A DNA stretch of 64,000 nt from Shigella phage vB_SdyM_006. Of this stretch, positions 7,396-40,649 are shown in pieces. Under the pieces are notes generated by a model that saw only the letters and a list, made by a program, of their open reading frames with translations, did not search any database and was not told the origin of the DNA. The stretch is from sequence record MK295204. One strand, given 5' to 3'. Position 1 is the stretch's first letter, and each line of letters begins with the position of its first letter. The translations under genes and the position numbers were made by a program.

Positions 7396-7420
7396 AGCCC
7401 GGGAAACCGGGCTATTTTAT
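7396..7420 (+). terminator. terminator after major capsid gene
   Basis: AGCCCGG-GAAA-CCGGGCT followed by ATTTTATT. Confidence 0.7.
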
Positions 7421-7500
7421 TAATATTTTATCGTAAAGTATTAATAAAATATTTTAAACTCTAACAACTAAAAAGATTTATACTTTAAGAGAGAAATAAA

Positions 7501-13894: not shown

Positions 13895-14115
13895 GTGATT
13901 TTAACACGATCATGATATATTACTCTATCATGGCTTTTTGAAACTGTAAATCCTTTTTCTTTAAGAATTTCAATCAACGCATCTTTAATGGCTTCATTTT
14001 CTGGAAGCTTTGCGTAATGCTCTGTACTATCATGCAAAGCCAGTTGGCAAATATCATTTAACACAATAGCTAAATTGTGTTCAACAACAGTATTTTTAAG
14101 ATCAGATAAATTCAT
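13873..14115 (-). CDS. hypothetical protein
   Basis: 80 aa ORF, first gene downstream of a putative minus-strand early promoter. Confidence 0.4.
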   Translation of the reverse strand: MNLSDLKNTVVEHNLAIVLNDICQLALHDSTEHYAKLPENEAIKDALIEILKEKGFTVSKSHDRVIYHDRVKITWDYSKC

Positions 14116-14149
14116 ATTATTCTCACAGTTGCGAATTGATGATGTGTAT

Positions 14150-14177
14150 ACTATATTATAAAATAGTGTTTGTAAAC
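14150..14177 (-). promoter_or_regulatory. putative divergent early promoter (GTTTAC-N16-TATAGT)
   Basis: GTTTAC on minus strand (plus 14172-14177) with TATAGT 16 nt downstream; weaker match. Confidence 0.3.
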
Positions 14178-14200
14178 ATCTAAAATAATTTAAAATAAAT

Positions 14201-14229
14201 GTTTACTTTTGCTGTCATTATGATATTAT
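14201..14229 (+). promoter_or_regulatory. T4-type early promoter (GTTTAC-N17-TATTAT)
   Basis: -35 GTTTAC 14201-14206, 17-nt spacer, -10 TATTAT 14224-14229; part of a conserved cassette. Confidence 0.6.
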
Positions 14230-14271
14230 ATACATATTGAAACGAAACATGAAAAACAAATGGAGTATATT

Positions 14272-14616
14272 ATGAATAAGACACAAATCAATGCAGTTTT
14301 AAAAACTTTAGGTTATGGTAATTTACGTTATTCTAATGGTAAAACATACCGCAGAGGAAACTCTATGGTTAAAGGTTTTCATTTAATTTCTACTGGTGCA
14401 TGTATGGTGACTTCACCAGAAACACAAAAATTTAGTGATCTTGTTAATGAGTTAAAACAACATTTTGAATTACAATCATATTATGACAATTGCATGGCAA
14501 TATTTGTGACAGGAAAATTAAAAATTGTTGTTTGTTTAACAAATTTTAATACATACGGTGGCTTAAACCCAGATTATAAAACATGGTTTGCATCTGTTAA
14601 TATTGAAAAGTTATAA
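14272..14616 (+). CDS. hypothetical protein, lone plus-strand gene in an accessory island
   Basis: Start placed at the second ATG, preceded by GGAGTATAT as in two other copies of the same promoter-leader cassette; own early promoter upstream and bidirectional terminator downstream. Confidence 0.5.
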   Translation: MNKTQINAVLKTLGYGNLRYSNGKTYRRGNSMVKGFHLISTGACMVTSPETQKFSDLVNELKQHFELQSYYDNCMAIFVTGKLKIVVCLTNFNTYGGLNPDYKTWFASVNIEKL

Positions 14617-14620
14617 AACA

Positions 14621-14645
14621 AAAATGGGACCGTAAGGTCCCATTT
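14621..14645. terminator. bidirectional terminator between plus-strand island gene and gene 54
   Basis: TGGGACC-GTAA-GGTCCCA flanked by A-run and T-run. Confidence 0.7.
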
Positions 14646-15560
14646 TCAAATTAATCTTGTTACAGCTCCTATTCCTCCTCCAGCACCACCTAATCTTGTT
14701 AAATTTCTTAATGAAGAGCTTAAAGAGTTTTCTTCTGAAATTGTATCTATGGCACCAATTGCTTTTGATTCTAACCAATCAAGAGCTGCTTGCCTACCGA
14801 CAGAACCTACCTGCATCACCCTGTATGCGAATGTAACATCAAAAACAGCAATAGTATTATTATCTTCATATGAAAGTTCAGGAGCACCTACCGACATAGG
14901 AACACACCCTGTGAACATGGCAACAGTATGTGGAAGACCGTTTCTATTGTGTAAATTAACCTGGATATCGGCTTCAACATCTATAGGTAAAGCACGTAGT
15001 CCTGTGATTGGGTCTTCAACTGAATTCACCCAATCTTGCATAGCTCGATAATTACTTGCTTCTGAATCCATCCTAAACGAAATTATCAACGGGTCATATT
15101 CTCTAGATAGAACTTTTATATTAGGTGAATTATGATTTTTATCCATCTCATAAGATAGTCTGTTTTCTGGTAATTTGACAGAATAAACCATTAACCCAGA
15201 TGTTGGAAATGCCATATTAAAGAAATCTAATAGATAAGTCCCTACTTCAAATTCTCCTAATAATGATTGAACCACACGATTAGACATGGCTCCTAAAAGA
15301 TATTTAGAAACACCAGATTTTCTCACTAGTTTTTGAGTACCAGCAACAACTAGACTTGATACTGCACTAGTTACATCATTTTGAGATATTCCAAGAAAAT
15401 CTGTATCTATAGGTAAATTGTTAAACAAAAAACCACCAAAATTATCTAAAAGCTCATTAGTTTTTGATGATGGGGCTGTGGCAAAAACAACACTAAACAT
15501 GTTTGTTCTTTGGAAGTCAAGATTGACAGCTTGGCTTTTAAATTCTTCTAATGTATACAT
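14646..15560 (-). CDS. 54: baseplate tail-tube junction protein
   Basis: 304 aa; last gene of the 51-27-28-29-48-54 hub series, matching T4 order and length (320 aa). Confidence 0.75.
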   Translation of the reverse strand: MYTLEEFKSQAVNLDFQRTNMFSVVFATAPSSKTNELLDNFGGFLFNNLPIDTDFLGISQNDVTSAVSSLVVAGTQKLVRKSGVSKYLLGAMSNRVVQSLLGEFEVGTYLLDFFNMAFPTSGLMVYSVKLPENRLSYEMDKNHNSPNIKVLSREYDPLIISFRMDSEASNYRAMQDWVNSVEDPITGLRALPIDVEADIQVNLHNRNGLPHTVAMFTGCVPMSVGAPELSYEDNNTIAVFDVTFAYRVMQVGSVGRQAALDWLESKAIGAIDTISEENSLSSSLRNLTRLGGAGGGIGAVTRLI

Positions 15561-16603
15561 TATAACAATCCTTCTGCAAACAAAGTTCCACGATTTAGTG
15601 TTAAAATCTCTCTAAACGTTATTTCAAGAGTAAACGTACTTGGTAAATTTGGGGCCATGGCTAGACCATTAAAATGTCCATTAGGAGATTTGTCAAATCT
15701 TATACTAGAAATCTGGGCTGGTCCAAATATATCAGTTCGGCCATCATAAGAAGATGTTTTACCAAAATTTCGTATAACCCATATTGTTGGGTTACTTACA
15801 ACAAGAACATTAGTTAAAAAACTTGTAATATTTTCCAATATTGTTCCTGAAGTATCAGCACCGTCTGGGGTATTAGGATTTATTAATGTTGTTTTATACC
15901 ATTCATCAATAGCGGCTTTAATTTCTTTAGCAAATTTAGACACACCTGTTTCACCATAAGAGAAATAACTAAATATTTCGTAAATATACAAAATTTGTAT
16001 AAGGTCTTGTGGAGTCCTTGGTGTTAAATGCCAGGTAAAAACTTTAGTTCTATTATCCGCTCCAGCATACATAGATCTAGCTGTAGTATAAATTTGTTCG
16101 CCTTTATCAGCCATAATTCCTTGTGTAATCGAATCTAATGCACCAAAAACAGCCGTTGACGCAACATTACTCAAAGCACCTGTTACGCTACCACCACCTT
16201 TAGTTAATAAAGAATCTCCAACATCATTAAATCTATGAGAAATGTTATCTACGTCAGATTGACTTCTTGGCATTAATATATTAGCAACAGATTCTTGACT
16301 AAAGGTGGTTGTCCCACCTTTTTTAGAAAAATCAATATTAATTGCGTCAACGGCATTTTGTTTTTTTCTAAAGTCTCTTAATGAGCCTGTATCGCGTGCA
16401 TTATAATTATATGCAGTAAATAACAGCCCGTTTTTATATAAGTCATTAAGTCTAAAATCTAAAGCATTATCTGTACCAGAGGCTCGTTCTGCTGGAAACT
16501 GAGCCACTAATGTTTTGGTTTGAGTATTTGTTGGATTAGAAGACCCAGCAGATATTTTTGTTCCTATTTTCTCTACTTCTTCATCCAGAACTTTTATTTT
16601 CAT
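15560..16603 (-). CDS. 48: baseplate tail-tube cap protein
   Basis: 347 aa; position between gp29 and gp54 as in T4 (364 aa). Confidence 0.75.
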   Translation of the reverse strand: MKIKVLDEEVEKIGTKISAGSSNPTNTQTKTLVAQFPAERASGTDNALDFRLNDLYKNGLLFTAYNYNARDTGSLRDFRKKQNAVDAINIDFSKKGGTTTFSQESVANILMPRSQSDVDNISHRFNDVGDSLLTKGGGSVTGALSNVASTAVFGALDSITQGIMADKGEQIYTTARSMYAGADNRTKVFTWHLTPRTPQDLIQILYIYEIFSYFSYGETGVSKFAKEIKAAIDEWYKTTLINPNTPDGADTSGTILENITSFLTNVLVVSNPTIWVIRNFGKTSSYDGRTDIFGPAQISSIRFDKSPNGHFNGLAMAPNLPSTFTLEITFREILTLNRGTLFAEGLL

Positions 16604-18324
16604 TAATTAACCTCTAAAGCTTTATACATGCCAGGAGCAGCATATCCTGTTACAGGATTTTGTTGAATAACAGTCTTATTATTAGCTACATTGTTTTGGA
16701 CATTAGCTGTATTTGTGGTCGTTTGAGATGATGTTTCTGTTGTTTCTATATTATTGATATTTTCTGCACTTGTGTAAGCTTGAGATTCTTTAGGATCTTC
16801 AGGTTTAATAGATGGGATCTGCTCTAATAACAAATCTGATCTATCTAATGCATCTATTCCTAATTTATAATAATCCGAATCGACTTCAACATCTTGGTTA
16901 TCAACAATAGAACTTGCAAGTTCTCTTAATTCGCCAGCTATTTTAGTTAAAGCCTCTGGGTTATTTCTATGAGCTTCAGATAAGGCCATTAATTGATTTA
17001 ATCTAGCTTCAGTTTTTACTTGTTCTTCTATATCGCCCATTTCTGGTGCAGATTCATCTTGCTTTTTAGCTAAAGCAATAGCCCTATCAGCATCTTCTCT
17101 ACTTATAACATTATTTTTTACATAAGTGTTTGCAGCTTCTTCTATAGACCCACCTGTAAATCTTGCTCTAGCTTTTATCATTGATAAATAGCCTTCATCA
17201 TCACTTTTGGCGGTATTTCTAATGTCGTTACCACGAACTTTAGCCATTAACTTAAGTTCATCTTCGTTAGGCATATAACCTGTATTTTTATTATATGCTT
17301 CTATAGTTGCAACTTCTAATTCGTCAGCCCAGTCGTCCTGCCCTATAGCTCGTAATAATGAAGATAACATTTTTCCTAATGCGTACTGTAAGCCTTGTAA
17401 AAGATTTTCTAAAACGTTTACCATACCTTTTACAATGGCTAATGCTAAATTACCAAAATCGCCTTCTTTCCAGAATTTTTTGACATCTTCTAGTGTAGCA
17501 AATATAGAACGCAATATCGGGGCTAGTGGTCCAAGTTTTTCTTCAAAATCGTCAAAGGCTTCATTAAATAATTTACCCCAATATTTAAAATGAATCATTA
17601 TAAGGTCCATAGCTAATACTATAGCCAACATTATTGCTGCCCATTTGGCAGCAAACAACGCCGCTGTTACAGTGTATTTAAACAACATATCAGCTATTCT
17701 GTTTGTCATCCCATAAGCAGATTTGAACCCAGTTTTAACATTTTTATTTAAAGAATTTAAAACTTTAGATAAAGAGTCTTTTTCTTTATTGTCATCTTTA
17801 GGTTCTTTCTTTTTCTTCTCTTCTTCTGGGACCGGTGCTCTATCGACGTCATCTCTTCTAATAACAAGGTCTTTAATAGCAGATTCTAGTTTATTATCTT
17901 CAACCGGAACAGGGAGTTTAGAAAAAGCTTCTTCGGTCTCAGAAACTTCTGGTTCTACAATTTCCTGTTTTTCTGGTTTAAATTTTTCTTTTAACATATT
18001 ACTTAATTTAGATATGTTCGAAGAAAAAGAATTTGATAATTTAGAATTACTTGTTGCTAAGTCTTTTAAGTTATTATTTGTTTCTTGACTAGAATCTATT
18101 AATAACTCAACACCAGCTTGAACATCTTCTACAGAAGAAACAACTTTAGAAGTCCCAGATTCTACGGTTTCTGCAACTAGCTCAATACCATTTGATAAGT
18201 CATCTAAAGAATCAGAAACATTAAGCATAGAGTTAGCAACATTTTCTTGGCCTTTAGATTCTTTAGATATTTTATTTTTTTCTTCTATTACTTTATTTCT
18301 TCTAAACGAATCAGGTGTTTTCAT
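16603..18324 (-). CDS. 29: baseplate hub / tail length determinator
   Basis: 573 aa vs 590 in T4; position after gp28; low-complexity Ser/Asn-rich segments and a central hydrophobic stretch. Confidence 0.75.
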   Translation of the reverse strand: MKTPDSFRRNKVIEEKNKISKESKGQENVANSMLNVSDSLDDLSNGIELVAETVESGTSKVVSSVEDVQAGVELLIDSSQETNNNLKDLATSNSKLSNSFSSNISKLSNMLKEKFKPEKQEIVEPEVSETEEAFSKLPVPVEDNKLESAIKDLVIRRDDVDRAPVPEEEKKKKEPKDDNKEKDSLSKVLNSLNKNVKTGFKSAYGMTNRIADMLFKYTVTAALFAAKWAAIMLAIVLAMDLIMIHFKYWGKLFNEAFDDFEEKLGPLAPILRSIFATLEDVKKFWKEGDFGNLALAIVKGMVNVLENLLQGLQYALGKMLSSLLRAIGQDDWADELEVATIEAYNKNTGYMPNEDELKLMAKVRGNDIRNTAKSDDEGYLSMIKARARFTGGSIEEAANTYVKNNVISREDADRAIALAKKQDESAPEMGDIEEQVKTEARLNQLMALSEAHRNNPEALTKIAGELRELASSIVDNQDVEVDSDYYKLGIDALDRSDLLLEQIPSIKPEDPKESQAYTSAENINNIETTETSSQTTTNTANVQNNVANNKTVIQQNPVTGYAAPGMYKALEVN

Positions 18325-18829
18325 TTTGGAATAATCCTAATATGTCGTCGCCATAAACAACTTTGTCTTCAAGGTTTATAGCAATACTTTTTCCAAGTTC
18401 ATCAGCCCATTTATACACAAAAGCTGGCATACTACCAAAATCAACTTTTTCTAAACATAATGTTTCTAAAAGTTCTTTAGCTGAAGTGAATCTTTCTCCT
18501 GGTAATATGTCTCTAAATTTATATTCTTTTCCTTGATAAGTAAATTTAGGTGTTGGTAATAGATAAACATCATTTATTGAGTAAGTTTTATCTTTATATA
18601 CGAATGTGTCTGTACATTTACCATTAAATTCGGCTAAATGAAGCAAGACTAAATGAGCTTCTTTAAATGACAAATTTTTATCTACAGAATCAAGAACTAT
18701 TTTTAAAGTATCTTCTGGAGATTTAGCTTCTTTGAATTTGTCATAATAATTAAGTCCGAGTTTAGGAATTGTTAATTCTTTTCCATTTATATTAATCTTC
18801 TTCAGTGGAAGAATTATCTTTAATTTCAT
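18311..18829 (-). CDS. 28: baseplate hub distal subunit
   Basis: 172 aa vs 177 in T4; position between gp27 and gp29. Confidence 0.65.
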   Translation of the reverse strand: MKLKIILPLKKININGKELTIPKLGLNYYDKFKEAKSPEDTLKIVLDSVDKNLSFKEAHLVLLHLAEFNGKCTDTFVYKDKTYSINDVYLLPTPKFTYQGKEYKFRDILPGERFTSAKELLETLCLEKVDFGSMPAFVYKWADELGKSIAINLEDKVVYGDDILGLFQNENT

Positions 18830-19937
18830 TTTTTACCTTAATATGATCTACTGGTTTAAGAATTTTACTATTACTGAACATGTAAATATGTGTAAAACTC
18901 TGATTATTAGACATTTCATGTATAACAGAATCTACATAAAAAGTACTTAAGAACTGATTCTTAGGGTCATAGAATTCTAATTTATTTCCAGGCGTTATAT
19001 CAAAATCCCCATAAGTTGTACATTTTGCATAGGAATCATATTGAGCCATTGTATTTAATTTAGTCGCTTCTTCATACCCATTTCTAAATAACTGATCTGA
19101 ATACCCGCCATTTCTCGAAACTAAAATAGAATTTTCGCCATTTCCATTCACTATCCTAGTACAAGTTTTATCAATCATACTAAAAGAATATATAGTCGAG
19201 TTTTCGTATGGGTTTCTATTATGAGAATTTGTTTTTGTTATCCATTCAAAATCATATGCAAGTGGATATTCAAGTTGATCTGCAAATTGTCCAACCATTA
19301 ACGGTTCTCCGACTACCATTTCCTTAACTTTTGAATTAATGATTTGTTGGAAATCTGTGACGTGGATCCCATTAAAATCATCCCAAACCAAAGCAAACAT
19401 ATCAGATGCAACAGAAATACCAGTATCTCTAACATAGTCCATATATTCCTTAATTCCAAGAACCCATGGAACTAAAGGAACGTGAATATTCGTGCCAGTG
19501 ATCGTAGGTTTCAATAAAGGGGTGTCGGTATATAAAACATTTATCATTTCTTCTATAGTCTCTGTGGCGTTCTTGAAGAACACTCGACTAAATTTAAGAT
19601 TTTTATTTTTATACGGTGGAATCAATTGCATTGTAATAATGTTATCGCCTTTTTGATCAACTGATACAGAAGAATATTTTACGGCATAAATTCTATTTTT
19701 AGTTATTGATGTATTTGCATTACCTACAGAAATTTGGATTATTTGGTCTCCATCTAATTTAGTATGCATATTTTTATGATCGTAAATTTGTAACATCCCT
19801 TCGTTGGTCCCGTATAAATCATCTCTAATTGTCAACGAAGTAAAAGTTCCTGCTAATTCTATAAATCGGTTTTCTAACCAAGCATCATAACTTTGGTATA
19901 ATTTTATCGATATATTAGGATAACCCACCTTTTGCAT
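18792..19937 (-). CDS. 27: baseplate hub protein
   Basis: 381 aa vs 391 in T4; position after gp51. Confidence 0.8.
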   Translation of the reverse strand: MQKVGYPNISIKLYQSYDAWLENRFIELAGTFTSLTIRDDLYGTNEGMLQIYDHKNMHTKLDGDQIIQISVGNANTSITKNRIYAVKYSSVSVDQKGDNIITMQLIPPYKNKNLKFSRVFFKNATETIEEMINVLYTDTPLLKPTITGTNIHVPLVPWVLGIKEYMDYVRDTGISVASDMFALVWDDFNGIHVTDFQQIINSKVKEMVVGEPLMVGQFADQLEYPLAYDFEWITKTNSHNRNPYENSTIYSFSMIDKTCTRIVNGNGENSILVSRNGGYSDQLFRNGYEEATKLNTMAQYDSYAKCTTYGDFDITPGNKLEFYDPKNQFLSTFYVDSVIHEMSNNQSFTHIYMFSNSKILKPVDHIKVKNEIKDNSSTEED

Positions 19938-20688
19938 GTTTTTTGTCCTTTAAATCTTTTTCTATTAATGCTAATGTGATTGTCCTGTTCATTGGGGTCA
20001 TTTTCTCTATATCGTTTAGAGAATAGCCTTGTTTAACCATGATATGATTAATTTTATAAAATGCTATAATTTCCTCTTCAGACAAAATTATTTTAAACAG
20101 GTCTAAAATGTTTCTATATACCATTTCGTGAGTATCACAACAACTAAATTTAACAGGGATATAAATTGGATATATCTCTTTTATTATTTGTTCAAAATCA
20201 TCTAGAGAAATAACAGACATAACAAGATTTTTATTCTCTTGGTCTAAATCTTCCCATATATAAGAACCATTATTGTCTTCAATTTTATATATACAGCTGT
20301 CAAATAATTTTTTTATATCAGTTGTCATTATATCTGTAAAATCAAAATGAATTTTTATTCCTGAAGTTTCTAGAACAGGTCTTTTAAGTCTTTTCAATTC
20401 TAAGTTTAAAAAGGTCTTCTTTTCTTTACCACATTTAGGGCATTTAAAACGTATAGGAAGAACAGATTTACCAATAGATGAAGTAAACCAAATTATAAAT
20501 GCATAAGCTCTATATATTTTTGGCATATAAGGAAATGACTCTTCTAATAATTCATCTAGTATTTGTTCTGCTTCTTCTTGATTTTTTTCTATTTCACTCC
20601 GTACAAATAATAATTGTAAATAATCATCATTAGTAAACTGACGAATTCTGTATGTTTTTTCTGGTGTGACTATTCTTATTATGTTCAT
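19915..20688 (-). CDS. 51: baseplate hub assembly protein
   Basis: 257 aa vs 249 in T4; divergently arranged from gp26 with a shared late-promoter region; contains CPKCG and CCDTHE motifs. Confidence 0.65.
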   Translation of the reverse strand: MNIIRIVTPEKTYRIRQFTNDDYLQLLFVRSEIEKNQEEAEQILDELLEESFPYMPKIYRAYAFIIWFTSSIGKSVLPIRFKCPKCGKEKKTFLNLELKRLKRPVLETSGIKIHFDFTDIMTTDIKKLFDSCIYKIEDNNGSYIWEDLDQENKNLVMSVISLDDFEQIIKEIYPIYIPVKFSCCDTHEMVYRNILDLFKIILSEEEIIAFYKINHIMVKQGYSLNDIEKMTPMNRTITLALIEKDLKDKKHAKGGLS

Positions 20689-20704
20689 AGTGTCTCCTCT
20701 TATT

Positions 20705-20712
20705 TATTTATA
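20705..20712 (-). promoter_or_regulatory. late promoter TATAAATA for gene 51 (divergent, overlapping)
   Basis: Exact octamer on minus strand 17 nt upstream of ATG 20688; overlaps the plus-strand octamer by 4 bp. Confidence 0.5.
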
Positions 20713-20716
20713 AATA
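20709..20716 (+). promoter_or_regulatory. late promoter TATAAATA for gene 26
   Basis: Exact octamer 18 nt upstream of ATG 20734. Confidence 0.6.
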
Positions 20717-20733
20717 GATAAAAAGGAGACACT

Positions 20734-21318
20734 ATGTTTGAAATAACATGTAACGACATAACATACAACGCTAGATATTTCACTCTAGACGAATACGAGG
20801 ACGTTCTTAATAAAATAACTGATAATAATATTAAAGACGCCATTAGTGGGCTCTTAATTGATTGTATAGACTCCTACGATACAAACTTGCCTAAACACTA
20901 TGCAGAATGTATTTTTCTTAAATTATGGGCTCACAGTTTAGGTGGAGTAACTAAAGAACTAAATGATATTTTTGTTAATTTTAATTATATAGAAACACCT
21001 AAAGAAAAAGGATTTATTTACAAATTAGATGGATTGAGTCTCAAAATGAGATATCCAAAATTATTTGAAGACTCTGATAAATTAGAAATGGTCATAAATT
21101 GTATTGACTCAGTATTATTAGAAGACCAAACAGAAATTAAAGCTTCAGAGCTTTCTTCAGATGATTTAAACGTTTTATATTCATACTTGACGAAAGACGT
21201 AATTTTTTCGTTAAGAGACGAATTACTTAGACCTAAACCGTATATCGCTTTTCCTGTTGATGACGAAATTAAAACAATAGAAGGGTTTAAAAATTTATTA
21301 GAGGTGATAGATGAGTAA
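20734..21318 (+). CDS. 26: baseplate hub subunit
   Basis: 194 aa vs 208 in T4; immediately upstream of gp25; TATAAATA late promoter 18 nt upstream. Confidence 0.7.
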   Translation: MFEITCNDITYNARYFTLDEYEDVLNKITDNNIKDAISGLLIDCIDSYDTNLPKHYAECIFLKLWAHSLGGVTKELNDIFVNFNYIETPKEKGFIYKLDGLSLKMRYPKLFEDSDKLEMVINCIDSVLLEDQTEIKASELSSDDLNVLYSYLTKDVIFSLRDELLRPKPYIAFPVDDEIKTIEGFKNLLEVIDE

Positions 21319-21697
21319 AATGAATGTTTTATATTCTGACTTAGACCCTAAAATGGAAAAAGGCTGGGATAAAGACCTGCATAAAGTCGTAGGAGATAGG
21401 GCTGTCAAAAATTCTATTCTAGGAATAATTAGTACTAGGAAAGGGTCTAGACCCTTTGACCCAGAATTTGGGTGTAATATAACAGACCAATTATTCGAAA
21501 ATATGAGTCCATTAATAGAAGACACTATAGAGCGATCTATAGTTTCGGCTATTAAAAATTATGAGCCAAGAGTACAAAGATTAAAAGTTTCTGTTACTGC
21601 ATTGTATGATTCAAATTCTATAGTTGTAGATATTATTTTTTCTATTGTAGATAATCCAGACACATTAGAACAGATAAAAGTTCAATTATCAAAATAG
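21311..21697 (+). CDS. 25: baseplate wedge protein (lysozyme-like fold)
   Basis: 128 aa; blocks LYSD-DP-M, TRKGSRPFDPEFGC and NYEPR--L-V match T4 gp25. Confidence 0.9.
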   Translation: MSKMNVLYSDLDPKMEKGWDKDLHKVVGDRAVKNSILGIISTRKGSRPFDPEFGCNITDQLFENMSPLIEDTIERSIVSAIKNYEPRVQRLKVSVTALYDSNSIVVDIIFSIVDNPDTLEQIKVQLSK

Positions 21698-21936
21698 TTT
21701 ACTATAGTTATTAATTTATTACTTAATAGTTATATATAATATATAAAGAACTTAATAAAATAATAAAAATTCTGGAGCTGCGCTCCAGATTTCTTTAGAA
21801 ATAGTAACATATAGTTATTAATTTATTACTTAATAGTTATATAGAATATACTATACTTTTAATAAATTAATTTACTAGAGTTACTATTAATAGGCTATTA
21901 TAATAAAATGGTTATAATGAATCATTTGGAGGAACT
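21698..21936. repeat. composite AT-rich intergenic repeat element, copy A (gp25/uvsY)
   Basis: Contains two copies of ATAGTTATTAATTTATTACTTAATAGTTATATA plus a stem-loop; near-identical modules at 58498..58703 in swapped order. Confidence 0.8.
21772..21788 (+). terminator. stem-loop inside composite repeat, downstream of gene 25
   Basis: CTGGAGC-TGC-GCTCCAG. Confidence 0.4.
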
Positions 21937-22347
21937 ATGAATTTAGAAGAATTACAAACAATGTTATCAGAAGATTTAAGAATTGATCCATTAAAACTTC
22001 AATATGAAGCTGCAAATAATCCAACATTATATGGAAAATGGTTAAAAATTTATTCTGATATAAAGAAAGGAATTATTTCTTATGAAGCTAATAAGAAAAA
22101 ACTTTTAAAACAAAGATTAGACCATTATACTGGACGTGGTGATGAAGTGTGTATGGACTTATATGAAAAATCAGAACTTAAAACTGTTATTGCAGCTGAC
22201 CCAGAAATTTTGAAAACACAAACATCTGTGGAATATAGAACATTATTATTGGATTTTGCATCAAAAGCTTTAGATGCTATTAAAGCCCGTGGATTTAGTA
22301 TTAAGCACATTCTAGAATGTAGACAATTTGAGGCAGGAACAAAATGA
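21937..22347 (+). CDS. uvsY: recombination mediator protein UvsY
   Basis: 136 aa; LQYEAANN, YTGRGDE, YEKSE-KTV, LLDF-S-ALDAIK-RGF-IKHI match T4 UvsY. Confidence 0.9.
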   Translation: MNLEELQTMLSEDLRIDPLKLQYEAANNPTLYGKWLKIYSDIKKGIISYEANKKKLLKQRLDHYTGRGDEVCMDLYEKSELKTVIAADPEILKTQTSVEYRTLLLDFASKALDAIKARGFSIKHILECRQFEAGTK

Positions 22348-22715
22348 CAAGCATTGATGTATTGAATCAACAGATTGATTTAGCTTCTTCAATTGAAGGA
22401 ATTACTGACAAAACTCCTGTAATAAAATCAATGAAACACTATTTAAGAGATATAAATAATATTAAGCCAATGGCTGAAGGTATACTTAAAAGTAATAAAT
22501 TACCTGATTATACATTATCTCAAATCATTGAAGAACTAAAAGGATGGGCTATGGACCATATTTGTGTAGTTTGTAAAAAGCCTATTGATGAGAGTTTAGT
22601 TATCTATAACGATAATAATGAACCTGTTCATCCGGGGCCTTGTTATAATTTTGCTAAAGAACAACCTGTAACAGAATCAGGTCATTCTTTAAATGAAGTA
22701 GAATTATTAATGTAA
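22344..22715 (+). CDS. hypothetical protein downstream of uvsY (UvsY.-2 position)
   Basis: 123 aa; overlaps uvsY stop by 4 nt. Confidence 0.5.
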   Translation: MTSIDVLNQQIDLASSIEGITDKTPVIKSMKHYLRDINNIKPMAEGILKSNKLPDYTLSQIIEELKGWAMDHICVVCKKPIDESLVIYNDNNEPVHPGPCYNFAKEQPVTESGHSLNEVELLM

Positions 22716-22720
22716 AAAAT

Positions 22721-22746
22721 AAAAGACGAGGGTTACTCGTCTTTTT
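22721..22746. terminator. bidirectional terminator between uvsY.-2 and uvsW.1
   Basis: AAAAGACGAG-GGTTA-CTCGTCTTTTT. Confidence 0.65.
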
Positions 22747-22954
22747 CTGTTTCTAAATCTTCTAATTCTAATCTCTTGCCTTCTAAGGCATCTCTTATAG
22801 AGATATCATCAGTATCTTTAATTTCTAATTCTTTTATACGTTTAGAATAATATTTTTCTAATTCGTCTAAACCAGCCAATGTTTGACATTCTCTTATTTT
22901 GTTCATAAAAGTTTCGACACTAGCTTCGATTAAAATATCTTTAAATTTTAACAT
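22733..22954 (-). CDS. small acidic protein downstream of uvsW (UvsW.1 position)
   Basis: 73 aa; overlaps uvsW 3' end by 7 nt. Confidence 0.5.
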   Translation of the reverse strand: MLKFKDILIEASVETFMNKIRECQTLAGLDELEKYYSKRIKELEIKDTDDISIRDALEGKRLELEDLETEKDE

Positions 22955-24453
22955 AATTTTACCTCTCTCATAGAATAATCAAATTGTTCACTTGCATACC
23001 TTTCTATACGTTCTAAAGCGTGTTTTAATGCATAATTTAAATGTACATATTTCTTTTTAGAATTTTTAGATTTAGGTTTTACACCCATGTCATCTACAAT
23101 GTCCCAAAGAACACCTTCAGCTTTAGAACCATGTAATCTAAGAACACGTCCAATAGATTGTAATACGGTTACTTTTGATTTAATTGGGTGTGCAAATATA
23201 ACATGGTGTAAATTTTTTATAGATACACCAGCACTGAAAACACCATAAGAAGCGACTACAACCATCCCTGAGCGTTTTTCTGCTAAGGCCTTTATAATAT
23301 CTCTATCTTTGTCTTTAACTTCTCCTGCGATAAAGAAGACGTTTTCTTCGCCATATATAGCCTTACATGCCTCGTATAGATCTTTACCATGGGCTATTCT
23401 ATCAAACATAACAAACACATTTTCATTTTTAGATGCTAATTTACATGCAAGTTTAGCTATCCATTCATTACGCTGTTTAGCTTTAATAATGATTTTAATT
23501 TCATCTTGATACGAAAATCCTTTAACTTTTTCTGTAAACGCATCCGGGTATCTTAAAAACAAAGTATTAATTTTAAGTTTAGACACTTGTCCTGCTTCCA
23601 TTAGTTCAGCCGTGGACACTGGTTTGTATATATCTCCAAATAATCCGATATATTGCATTACATTAGCTTTGCCATCTTTAACGGTTCCTGTTAGCCCGAA
23701 TTTAAATTTACAGTTGTTTAATCCGTTAATAATAGTACTAATACTTTTACCAGTCGCTAAATGACACTCATCATTCATTAACATTCCAAATTGACTAAAC
23801 CATTCTTTTGGTTGCTTAATAGCTGTCTGCCAGGTTGATACGTAAACCAAAGCATCAGAATCTTTAGCTGTACCGCCTTTTATTCCTAATAACATTTCTT
23901 TAGAAAATAGTCTATAGTCGACTAAGTCATCAATCATTTGTTTAACAAGAATAGTTGTTGGAACTAAAATTAAAACTTTACCTTGAAAGTTTTCTATATA
24001 ATAACGTGCTAAGAGCGCCTGGATCAACGATTTACCAGCTGATGTAGGTAAATTCAATAAAGCTCTATTTTGTGTTAAGCCTTTAACTACAGAATCTTTT
24101 TGATACCAATGAGGCGTTATCTTAGATGACCCAGAATATATTTCTTTAGAATCTATCCAATCAGAAACTTCTTTTTCAGTAATATCGCCATTATCATATA
24201 TTTTAGGATCCGTTTCTACAGTATAGTCCATATTAGAAGCAAACTTTTTAACATAGTTCACAAGCCCGTATGGTAATAAGCCGTCATACCCTAAAATTCT
24301 AATCTTGCCGTCCCATTGACCATATTTAAATTTTGGATTAAATTGGTACCCAGGAGTTTCGAAAGAGAAATAATCTCTTAATTCAAAGAACACAGAATCT
24401 TCACACTCGATTTTTACACTACTATAATCGTAAAACTTTAATTTAATATCCAT
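22948..24453 (-). CDS. uvsW: UvsW DNA helicase (SF2)
   Basis: Long identity runs with T4 UvsW (PTSAGKSLIQALLARYY, WFSQFGM-MNDECHLATGKSIS, KKKYVHLNY-LKH); start set at ATG 24453 (MDIKLKF), which lies downstream of a minus-strand TATAAATA. Confidence 0.92.
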   Translation of the reverse strand: MDIKLKFYDYSSVKIECEDSVFFELRDYFSFETPGYQFNPKFKYGQWDGKIRILGYDGLLPYGLVNYVKKFASNMDYTVETDPKIYDNGDITEKEVSDWIDSKEIYSGSSKITPHWYQKDSVVKGLTQNRALLNLPTSAGKSLIQALLARYYIENFQGKVLILVPTTILVKQMIDDLVDYRLFSKEMLLGIKGGTAKDSDALVYVSTWQTAIKQPKEWFSQFGMLMNDECHLATGKSISTIINGLNNCKFKFGLTGTVKDGKANVMQYIGLFGDIYKPVSTAELMEAGQVSKLKINTLFLRYPDAFTEKVKGFSYQDEIKIIIKAKQRNEWIAKLACKLASKNENVFVMFDRIAHGKDLYEACKAIYGEENVFFIAGEVKDKDRDIIKALAEKRSGMVVVASYGVFSAGVSIKNLHHVIFAHPIKSKVTVLQSIGRVLRLHGSKAEGVLWDIVDDMGVKPKSKNSKKKYVHLNYALKHALERIERYASEQFDYSMREVKLC

Positions 24454-24467
24454 TACTTTCACCTTGT

Positions 24468-24475
24468 TATAAATA
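24468..24475 (+). promoter_or_regulatory. late promoter TATAAATA for inh-like/hoc-like genes
   Basis: Exact octamer 33 nt upstream of ATG 24509. Confidence 0.6.
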
Positions 24476-24481
24476 CATATA

Positions 24482-24489
24482 TATTTATA
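24482..24489 (-). promoter_or_regulatory. late promoter TATAAATA for uvsW
   Basis: Exact octamer on minus strand 28 nt upstream of ATG 24453. Confidence 0.6.
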
Positions 24490-40592: not shown

Positions 40593-40649
40593 GTTAACCT
40601 CTCATTTTCAAATTTGTCTTACTATATTATAAAAATGAGAGGTTGTAAA

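Follow-up and report, generated by a model that had tools for sequence, protein, structure and literature searches.

The junction between the divergent genes 51 and 26 of Shigella phage vB_SdyM_006 raises the question of why the start regions of two genes should be exact mirror images of each other and why the two late promoter boxes between them should overlap. We addressed this question in a 64,000-nucleotide (nt) stretch of the phage DNA (sequence record MK295204; the window). Overall, we consider it likely that the junction is an ancestral, compact two-way late promoter and that its exact symmetry in phages of the genus Bragavirus is a by-product. The element is of a known kind, refined by symmetry in this one lineage, and it is largely ordinary. 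Its interest lies in its compactness, as 51 base pairs (bp) would hold two promoters sharing four bases, two full flanking ribosome-binding sites and the start of two operons led by paralogs.

Two late promoter boxes share four bases at the 51|26 junction

Between positions 19900 and 21700, the window shares 99.8-99.9% of its nucleotides with the Proteus phages SJ_PmiM and phiP4-3, and about 84.5% with Pm5461 and PM2. These four phages belong to the genus Bragavirus (Straboviridae), in which we also place the window and inside which genomes diverge by about 15%. The junction, the signals in it and the genes flanking it are as follows.

19915..20688, − strand: gene 51 homologue, baseplate hub assembly protein, 257 amino acids (open reading frame (ORF); PF12322, E 3.6e-43; phrog_150; annotation of SJ_PmiM, phiP4-3 and Pm5461)
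20686..20698, − strand: gene 51 start region, left arm of a 13-nt inverted repeat (AGGAG, ACACT and ATG on the − strand; CATAGTGTCTCCT), from the sequence
20689..20733: 51|26 spacer, 45 bp
20705..20712, − strand: late-type box TATAAATA of the gene 51 side; transcription predicted to start at about 20699, leaving an 11-nt leader (exact match; promoter annotated at the orthologous site of Pm5461)
20705..20716, both strands: perfect 12-bp palindrome TATTTATAAATA, i.e. two late boxes sharing a self-complementary TATA (sequence and conservation)
20709..20716, + strand: late-type box TATAAATA of the 26-25 unit; transcription predicted to start at about 20722, leaving a 12-nt leader (exact match; promoter annotated in Pm5461)
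20724..20736, + strand: gene 26 start region, right arm of the 13-nt inverted repeat (AGGAG, ACACT and ATG; AGGAGACACTATG), from the sequence
20686..20736, both strands: the whole 51-bp near-palindrome, with 13 outer pairs and inner A/U-rich pairs (9 on the + strand) in RNA that crosses it
20734..21318, + strand: gene 26 homologue, 194 amino acids (ORF; PF12322, E 3.2e-30; phrog_150)
21311..21697, + strand: gene 25 homologue, baseplate wedge, second in the rightward unit (PF04965)

The names 51 and 26 and the 45-bp spacer given in the first-pass annotation agree with the Pfam family, the annotation of relatives and the ORF coordinates, and the two TATAAATA boxes with a 4-bp overlap, which it had also described, lie where the list places them. 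In T4, the late promoter box occupies positions −13 to −6 (Nolan 2006). By this rule, both mRNAs are predicted to open with essentially the same Shine-Dalgarno (SD)-spacer-AUG, as had been claimed, and the predicted leaders (AAAGGAGACACU and GAGGAGACACU) are the shortest in the phage. Because the transcripts would begin only 11-12 nt before the AUG, there would be room in each leader for hardly anything beyond a strong SD (AGGAG) and a 5-nt spacer. Box end and ATG are 17 nt apart for gene 26 and 16 nt apart for gene 51, compared with 20-33 nt between the other boxes of the phage and their starts.

The raw counts of the motifs say nothing here, because the AT-rich window yields the expected numbers: TATAAATA occurs 15 times against 16.9 expected, i.e. 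without enrichment, and about 3 copies of TATTTATAAATA with at most one mismatch are expected by chance. It is the position of the boxes and their conservation, not their counts, that carry the signal. Eight of the 15 boxes precede, by 16-33 nt, an annotated start that has the matching orientation, compared with about 0.4 expected by chance. The junction box is the sole exact box on the − strand from 14000 to 24481, and no other exact box was found upstream of either operon on the relevant strand. The one other relaxed match in this − strand interval, the overlapping AATAAATA (20701-20708), was set aside as a promoter box since its predicted start would land within the SD. Given that no other exact box precedes either operon and that terminator-like hairpins lie at 14619-14648, 21771-21789 and 22721-22745 (see below), we conclude that the junction boxes are probably the promoters of both operons, i.e. 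of the leftward late operon 51-27-28-29-48-54, in which gene 51 comes first, and of 26-25.

We note one further exact TATAAATA on the + strand at 22451-22458, inside a uvsY.-1-like ORF (22344-22715). No annotated start lies within 60 nt downstream of it, and it may be a chance match or an internal promoter.

The promoter pair is shared by most T4-like lineages

To compare the junction across related phages, a check that the first-pass annotation had proposed, we used 18 distinct lineages whose gp26 is 26-39% identical to the window protein. The promoter palindrome turned out to be widely kept and the exact start mirror to be peculiar to Bragavirus. The exact 12-bp palindrome stands at the 51|26 junction in 15 of the 18 lineages, including T4/T2, CC31, PS2, VR7, Cronus and an Acinetobacter phage, and is better conserved across genera than the proteins it would serve. 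Spacers that contain it measure 45-53 bp (65 bp in the Acinetobacter phage), with boxes 15-24 nt away from the gene 51 ATG and 16-22 nt away from the gene 26 ATG. Morganella phage MP1, which is the nearest outgroup, and lineage L048 carry a crossed form, TATAAATATTTATA, instead of the palindrome, and phiAS4 carries TATTTAAATA in its place; all three arrangements are related to the palindromic one.

The T4 junction (NC_000866, 116428-116479; palindrome at 116450-116461) resembles that of the window in that the orthologous genes stand head to head around the same TATTTATAAATA, within a 50-bp spacer, with strong GGAG sites on both sides and 17 and 21 nt from box to ATG. It differs in its start regions, which match at 6 of 13 positions and have spacers of unequal length, and in the weaker fold of its junction RNA (−13.3 and −11.6 kcal/mol). 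T4 late promoters for genes 26 and 51 are, we presume, in published lists; the T4 sequence records carry no promoter features, and the supplement of a T4 differential RNA sequencing preprint gave no coordinates near 116444 or 116467.

For Pm5461, which belongs to the same genus as the window and has a junction alike save for one loop base, the GenBank record (KP890823) labels both boxes at 51|26 and both boxes at uvsW|inh (see below) as promoters that MEME had identified (Melo et al. 2016, PMC4923195). The annotation is limited to the boxes, and the paper does not discuss their overlap, the palindrome, the mirrored starts or the hairpin, and our literature searches found no discussion of the 51|26 junction. 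The promoter pair thus appears to be ancestral and, being already annotated, is not new. A shared TATA is the most compact placement of two such boxes, and the arrangement is probably frozen, as most changes would harm at least one promoter.

Two observations were made in passing on the junctions of other phages. In Escherichia phage JSE (RB49-like; L055 1493-1562), a 70-bp 51|26 junction contains an imperfect TATTTATAAAATA, in which the leftward box is exact and the rightward one degenerate. In Enterobacter phage CC31 (NC_014662), the RefSeq start of gp51 (1034) gives a protein of 217 amino acids and a 148-bp spacer, and an upstream in-frame ATG (about 1133) with GGAG gives 250 amino acids, the usual 49-bp junction and the palindrome; the annotated CC31 gp51 start thus looks truncated.

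The two promoters are unlikely to be occupied at the same time

The first-pass annotation had raised the possibility of competition between the divergent promoters, which the geometry makes plausible. The T4 late open and activated complexes melt DNA from −12 to +2, and the duplex upstream of the melted region carries gp33 and the gp45 clamp (Shi 2021). At the window junction, the predicted bubbles (20710-20723 on the + strand and 20698-20711 on the − strand) overlap by 2 bp, and the upstream DNA of each promoter is the transcribed DNA of the other. Judging from this geometry, simultaneous occupancy of both promoters is very unlikely. The window itself encodes gp33 (PF16805, E 3.6e-21) and DsbA. 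The gp55 and gp45 genes lie outside it, and, for Pm5461, the gp55 sigma factor and the sliding clamp are named in the BLAST table of another paper.

The exact mirror of the start regions is confined to Bragavirus

The start regions had been described as exact reverse complements of each other, and CATAGTGTCTCCT (20686-20698) and AGGAGACACTATG (20724-20736) indeed correspond at 13 of 13 positions. The arms reach 16 nt if one mismatch is allowed, and the inner AT-rich part of the junction is 91% self-complementary. Perfect 13-nt inverted repeats with a loop of at most 40 nt occur three times in the window, compared with 0.15 times in Markov simulations. The 97 starts annotated in SJ_PmiM form 4656 pairs, of which 4 have an identical 13-mer that ends in ATG, i.e. 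about 1e-3 per given pair. When the window is compared with Pm5461, the spacer is 44/45 identical (97.8%), as opposed to 81-89% for the flanking genes and 80% for the 25-uvsY intergenic region, which indicates purifying selection on the junction. Neither the start regions nor the first 17 coding nt of either gene vary across Bragavirus, and the junction occurs there as two haplotypes that are one loop base apart. Scans of viral contigs and metagenome contigs for further Bragavirus junction variants returned just Pm5461 and phiP4-3.

To score the mirror in other lineages, we aligned the two start regions of each phage at the ATG and counted matches out of 13, with the following results.

Start-region matches within a phage: Bragavirus 13; Cronus 11; PS2 8; T4 6; CC31 6; MP1 4

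In the 17 lineages besides Bragavirus, the two start regions of one phage match at 6.3 of 13 positions on average, compared with 7.2 of 13 for start regions taken from different phages, and a single cross-phage pair out of 272 reaches 13/13. Among the lineages compared, the exact SD-spacer-ATG mirror is confined to Bragavirus. Its two halves are consensus-like ribosome-binding sites, and each lies a single base away from orthologous sites: the Bragavirus 51 side matches the 51 sides of Cronus and L046 at 12 of 13 positions, and the 26 side does the same with the 26 sides of Cronus and L021. Strong ribosome-binding sites fill a small sequence space, and two substitutions from a Cronus-like ancestor would yield the exact mirror. 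A single quasi-palindrome-templated change, a mechanism known from T4 mutagenesis, is another possible route. Recent gene conversion between paralogs was rejected as the source, since the identity ends at the ATG and the two proteins share about 25% of their residues. The end of DNA identity at the ATG likewise argues that the mirror is no relic of a duplication.

gp51 and gp26 are paralogs

Both window proteins and both T4 proteins (the latter with E 3.9e-52 and 8.8e-64) match the PF12322 family over almost the whole of its length. Aligned with hhalign, gp51 and gp26 match with a probability of 99.2% (E 1.4e-19) over 191 columns, with their N termini in register and a C-terminal extension on gp51; BLASTP also aligns them from the N termini, with 25% identity over 73 residues. 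We conclude from these alignments that gp51 and gp26 are paralogs, a relationship that goes unmentioned in a review of the T4 tail and that, like the hairpin described below, the first-pass annotation had missed, and that the junction joins two duplicated genes head to head. This layout is found in most Straboviridae; in the Slopekvirus Klebsiella phage PMBT1 (L056 897-2191) and in RB16, the genes run in tandem as 51, 26, 25, and an inversion would separate the two layouts.

These observations fit the reading that we favor, in which the junction is an ancestral compact two-way late promoter. Two gp55-type TATAAATA boxes would share their self-complementary TATA and so produce the palindrome TATTTATAAATA, with the leftward box driving 51-27-28-29-48-54, the rightward box driving 26-25 and a hairpin terminator ending each unit. 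Because the open complexes would melt overlapping DNA and each would need the other's transcribed DNA as upstream duplex, the promoters would fire alternately rather than together. Given the paralogy of gp51 and gp26, the head-to-head layout, with similar signals on both sides, would reflect an old duplication or inversion. The Bragavirus mirror most likely arose from a couple of substitutions, or from one quasi-palindrome-templated change, in sites that were already similar; separate selection on each ribosome-binding site would then have preserved their identity, leaving the symmetry an unselected by-product.

RNA that reads through the junction is predicted to form a strong hairpin

As a consequence of the repeat, RNA crossing the junction is predicted to fold at −26 kcal/mol (+ strand) and −24 kcal/mol (− strand), with z scores of −6.9 and −7.2. 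In a 151-nt read-through RNA, the 13-nt start region is more than 99% paired (unpaired probability 0.008 and 0.001); for the predicted late mRNAs, the mean unpaired probability of nt 1-30 is 0.57 and 0.63. The late boxes lie within the hairpin loop, and transcription is predicted to start immediately interior to the arms, at 20722 and 20699. An intrinsic terminator at the junction was considered and rejected, as no T-run follows the hairpin on either strand, and a search of Rfam gave matches to microRNA-precursor hairpins alone, which were far below threshold and reflect the hairpin shape. In the 17 other lineages, the same segment folds at −5 to −16 kcal/mol, and the strong hairpin is not conserved.

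Several of these numbers speak against regarding the symmetry as a by-product. Bragavirus is an outlier, with −24.8/−22.8 kcal/mol compared with −8.7 ± 2.2 and −9.3 ± 3.0 kcal/mol in the 17 other lineages, which on the + strand places it about 7 standard deviations from the family mean. Further, if every lineage is given the empirical chance of 1/272, the probability that one of 18 lineages shows an exact mirror is only about 0.07, so that the symmetry may have been selected, and the mirror has persisted through about 15% genome divergence within Bragavirus. It is conceivable, though in our judgment unlikely, that the Bragavirus junction has been elaborated into a selected symmetric 51-bp device that combines matched output of gp51 and gp26 with a hairpin lock of about −25 kcal/mol working both ways. 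If so, both proteins would be made only from transcripts born at the junction, and the device would amount to a bidirectional version of the gate known from T4 gene e.

The hairpin part of this idea can be weighed separately as our main alternative, namely that selection has made the palindrome into a translational gate that works both ways, of the type found at T4 genes e, soc, 49 and I-TevI. Antisense, read-through or other RNA coming in from outside would then have its downstream SD and AUG locked in the hairpin, such that only late RNAs born at the junction are translatable. In the account given in a review (PMC3014915, citing McPheeters 1986), these T4 genes have a hairpin that occludes the ribosome-binding site and a late promoter inside it. 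The junction resembles the gene e type in that the SD and AUG would be paired in longer transcripts and the box lies inside, so that a late RNA, which lacks the 5′ arm, would be open. The strength of the fold (z about −7), the start region closed in read-through RNA and open in late mRNAs, and the late boxes in the loop are all consistent with such a gate, as is a second hairpin, with TATAAT in its loop, upstream of an alc-like gene at 40596-40644. The differences are that the window structure is symmetric and would act in both directions, that the strong structure is limited to one genus and that, at 51|26, transcripts initiated upstream are probably blocked by terminators. The hairpins that bear on this last point are the following.

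14619..14648, − strand: terminator-like hairpin with a 13-bp stem and a T run, closing the leftward operon (mapped 3′ end of gene 54)
21771..21789, both strands: bidirectional terminator-like hairpin that ends the 26-25 unit and blocks − strand read-through to the junction
22721..22745, both strands: bidirectional terminator between uvsY.-1 and uvsW.1

The hairpins at 21771-21789 (after gene 25) and 22721-22745 score as terminators in both directions, and the latter agrees with the conserved bidirectional terminator after uvsW.1 noted by Nolan 2006. The junction would thus be insulated by two bidirectional terminators on one side and by a terminator and 6 kb of antisense on the other. In addition, outside Bragavirus, there is only the weak pairing between SD and anti-SD that is inherent to closely spaced head-to-head sites; both genes are late, and silencing them early would meet no obvious need; and the arms are invariant in the genus, where a single loop base tells the two haplotypes apart, which leaves no covariation to be read. 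For these reasons, we regard a selected gate as an unlikely explanation, if the foremost among the alternatives.

The hairpin upstream of the alc-like gene (ATG 40592) was noted as a separate feature. On the − strand at 40596-40644, a perfect 13-nt inverted repeat (AACCTCTCATTTT / AAAATGAGAGGTT) encloses a 23-nt loop with TATAAT; the 3′ arm holds the SD (GAGAGG), and the segment folds at −18 kcal/mol. It looks like a hairpin that occludes the ribosome-binding site, with a promoter-like −10 element in the loop.

Matched translation and other readings of the symmetry

A second alternative is that the identical SD-spacer-AUG was selected to equalize translation of gp51 and gp26, as the first-pass annotation had proposed, on the grounds that paralogous chaperones may act in fixed proportion. 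The 13-nt start regions are identical, the 11-12-nt leaders are nearly so, there is no variation within the genus in the start regions or in the first 17 coding nt of either gene, and both proteins are hub assembly chaperones as well as paralogs. However, the other T4-like phages show no trend toward matching start regions: in the 17 lineages besides Bragavirus, the two start regions of one phage resemble each other no more than those of different phages do, which speaks against the mirror as a design for equalized translation. Further, the sequences after the AUG differ, as does the local structure predicted for the first 70 nt (−8.6 versus −3.7 kcal/mol), the operon contexts are unlike, and output would depend also on how often each promoter fires relative to the other. 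The idea had been framed in terms of two hub proteins; gp51 and gp26 are described as chaperones of hub assembly, not as a pair of stoichiometric hub subunits, and gp51 as catalytic and absent from the virion (Leiman 2010). A chaperone role leaves some room for matched expression without in itself speaking for it. Taken together, we consider equalized translation improbable, and somewhat more so than the gate.

It is more doubtful still, and to our minds improbable in the extreme, that the palindrome acts as DNA, i.e. as the site of a dimeric protein (e.g. the A/T-binding DsbA) or as a cruciform element, with the promoter-like boxes secondary. A perfect 12-bp palindrome kept across genera would suit such a role, and DsbA, which is encoded in the window, is reported to bind, weakly, to A/T-rich sites that overlap two T4 late promoters. 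Yet two promoters sharing a TATA would fully explain the palindrome and its conservation, MP1 and L048 retain two boxes in another arrangement that has no palindrome, and a specific binder is hypothetical. Pure coincidence, in which AT-rich DNA would have yielded boxes and repeat by chance, without any function as promoters, can practically be dismissed, since, although neither TATAAATA nor the near-palindrome is enriched across the window, it is contradicted by the comparative data (the palindrome at the exact junction in 15/18 lineages and a junction that is 97.8% conserved), by the strong enrichment of boxes just upstream of starts and by the lack of an alternative promoter for either operon.

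The ancestral two-way late promoter is thus the reading that we retain as probable. The Bragavirus junction would be a convenient template for studying promoter exclusion through a shared TATA and two-way gating by a hairpin; beyond this value as a template, it leaves the knowledge of T4-type late expression unchanged.

A second box pair between uvsW and inh is crossed

The first-pass annotation had pointed to a similar back-to-back pair at 24468..24489. The pair is real and lies between uvsW and the inh gene, but its geometry is crossed rather than back-to-back.

24468..24475, + strand: late-type box for inh-hoc, 33 nt from box end to ATG 24509 (exact box; Pm5461 annotation; inh = phrog_1051)
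24482..24489, − strand: late-type box for uvsW, 28 nt from box end to ATG 24453 (exact box; Pm5461 annotation)

The two boxes face each other 6 bp apart, and the predicted 5′ ends, 24481 (+) and 24476 (−), cross by about 6 nt. Each box would therefore lie within the first 10 nt of the other's predicted transcript, and both leaders would begin with the late-box complement UAUUUAUA. The site is kept in Pm5461, with one substitution and one indel within 100 nt. It resembles the MP1 51|26 junction in that opposite TATAAATA boxes within about 22 bp serve divergent late genes; in both crossed arrangements (TATAAATATTTATA in MP1), the predicted transcripts overlap at their 5′ ends, unlike the divergence from a shared TATA at the window 51|26 junction.

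Annotation transfer and a further repeat in the window

To carry the SJ_PmiM annotation to the window, we looked for exact copies of its 33-nt start regions, by which 57 of 97 could be placed; linear coordinate transfer is unreliable beyond the baseplate region owing to indels and divergence. The end of gene 54 was located by linear coordinate mapping from SJ_PmiM, and the gene order was taken from the annotation. The window is mosaic relative to SJ_PmiM, as just 57 of the 97 annotated start regions match exactly in spite of a 99.9% identical baseplate region. Finally, the segment 7395-7451 combines a GC-rich terminator-like hairpin (AGCCCGGGAAACCGGGCT and a T run) with a perfect 13-nt inverted repeat, made up of A and T only, immediately after it (7413-7425 / 7439-7451).

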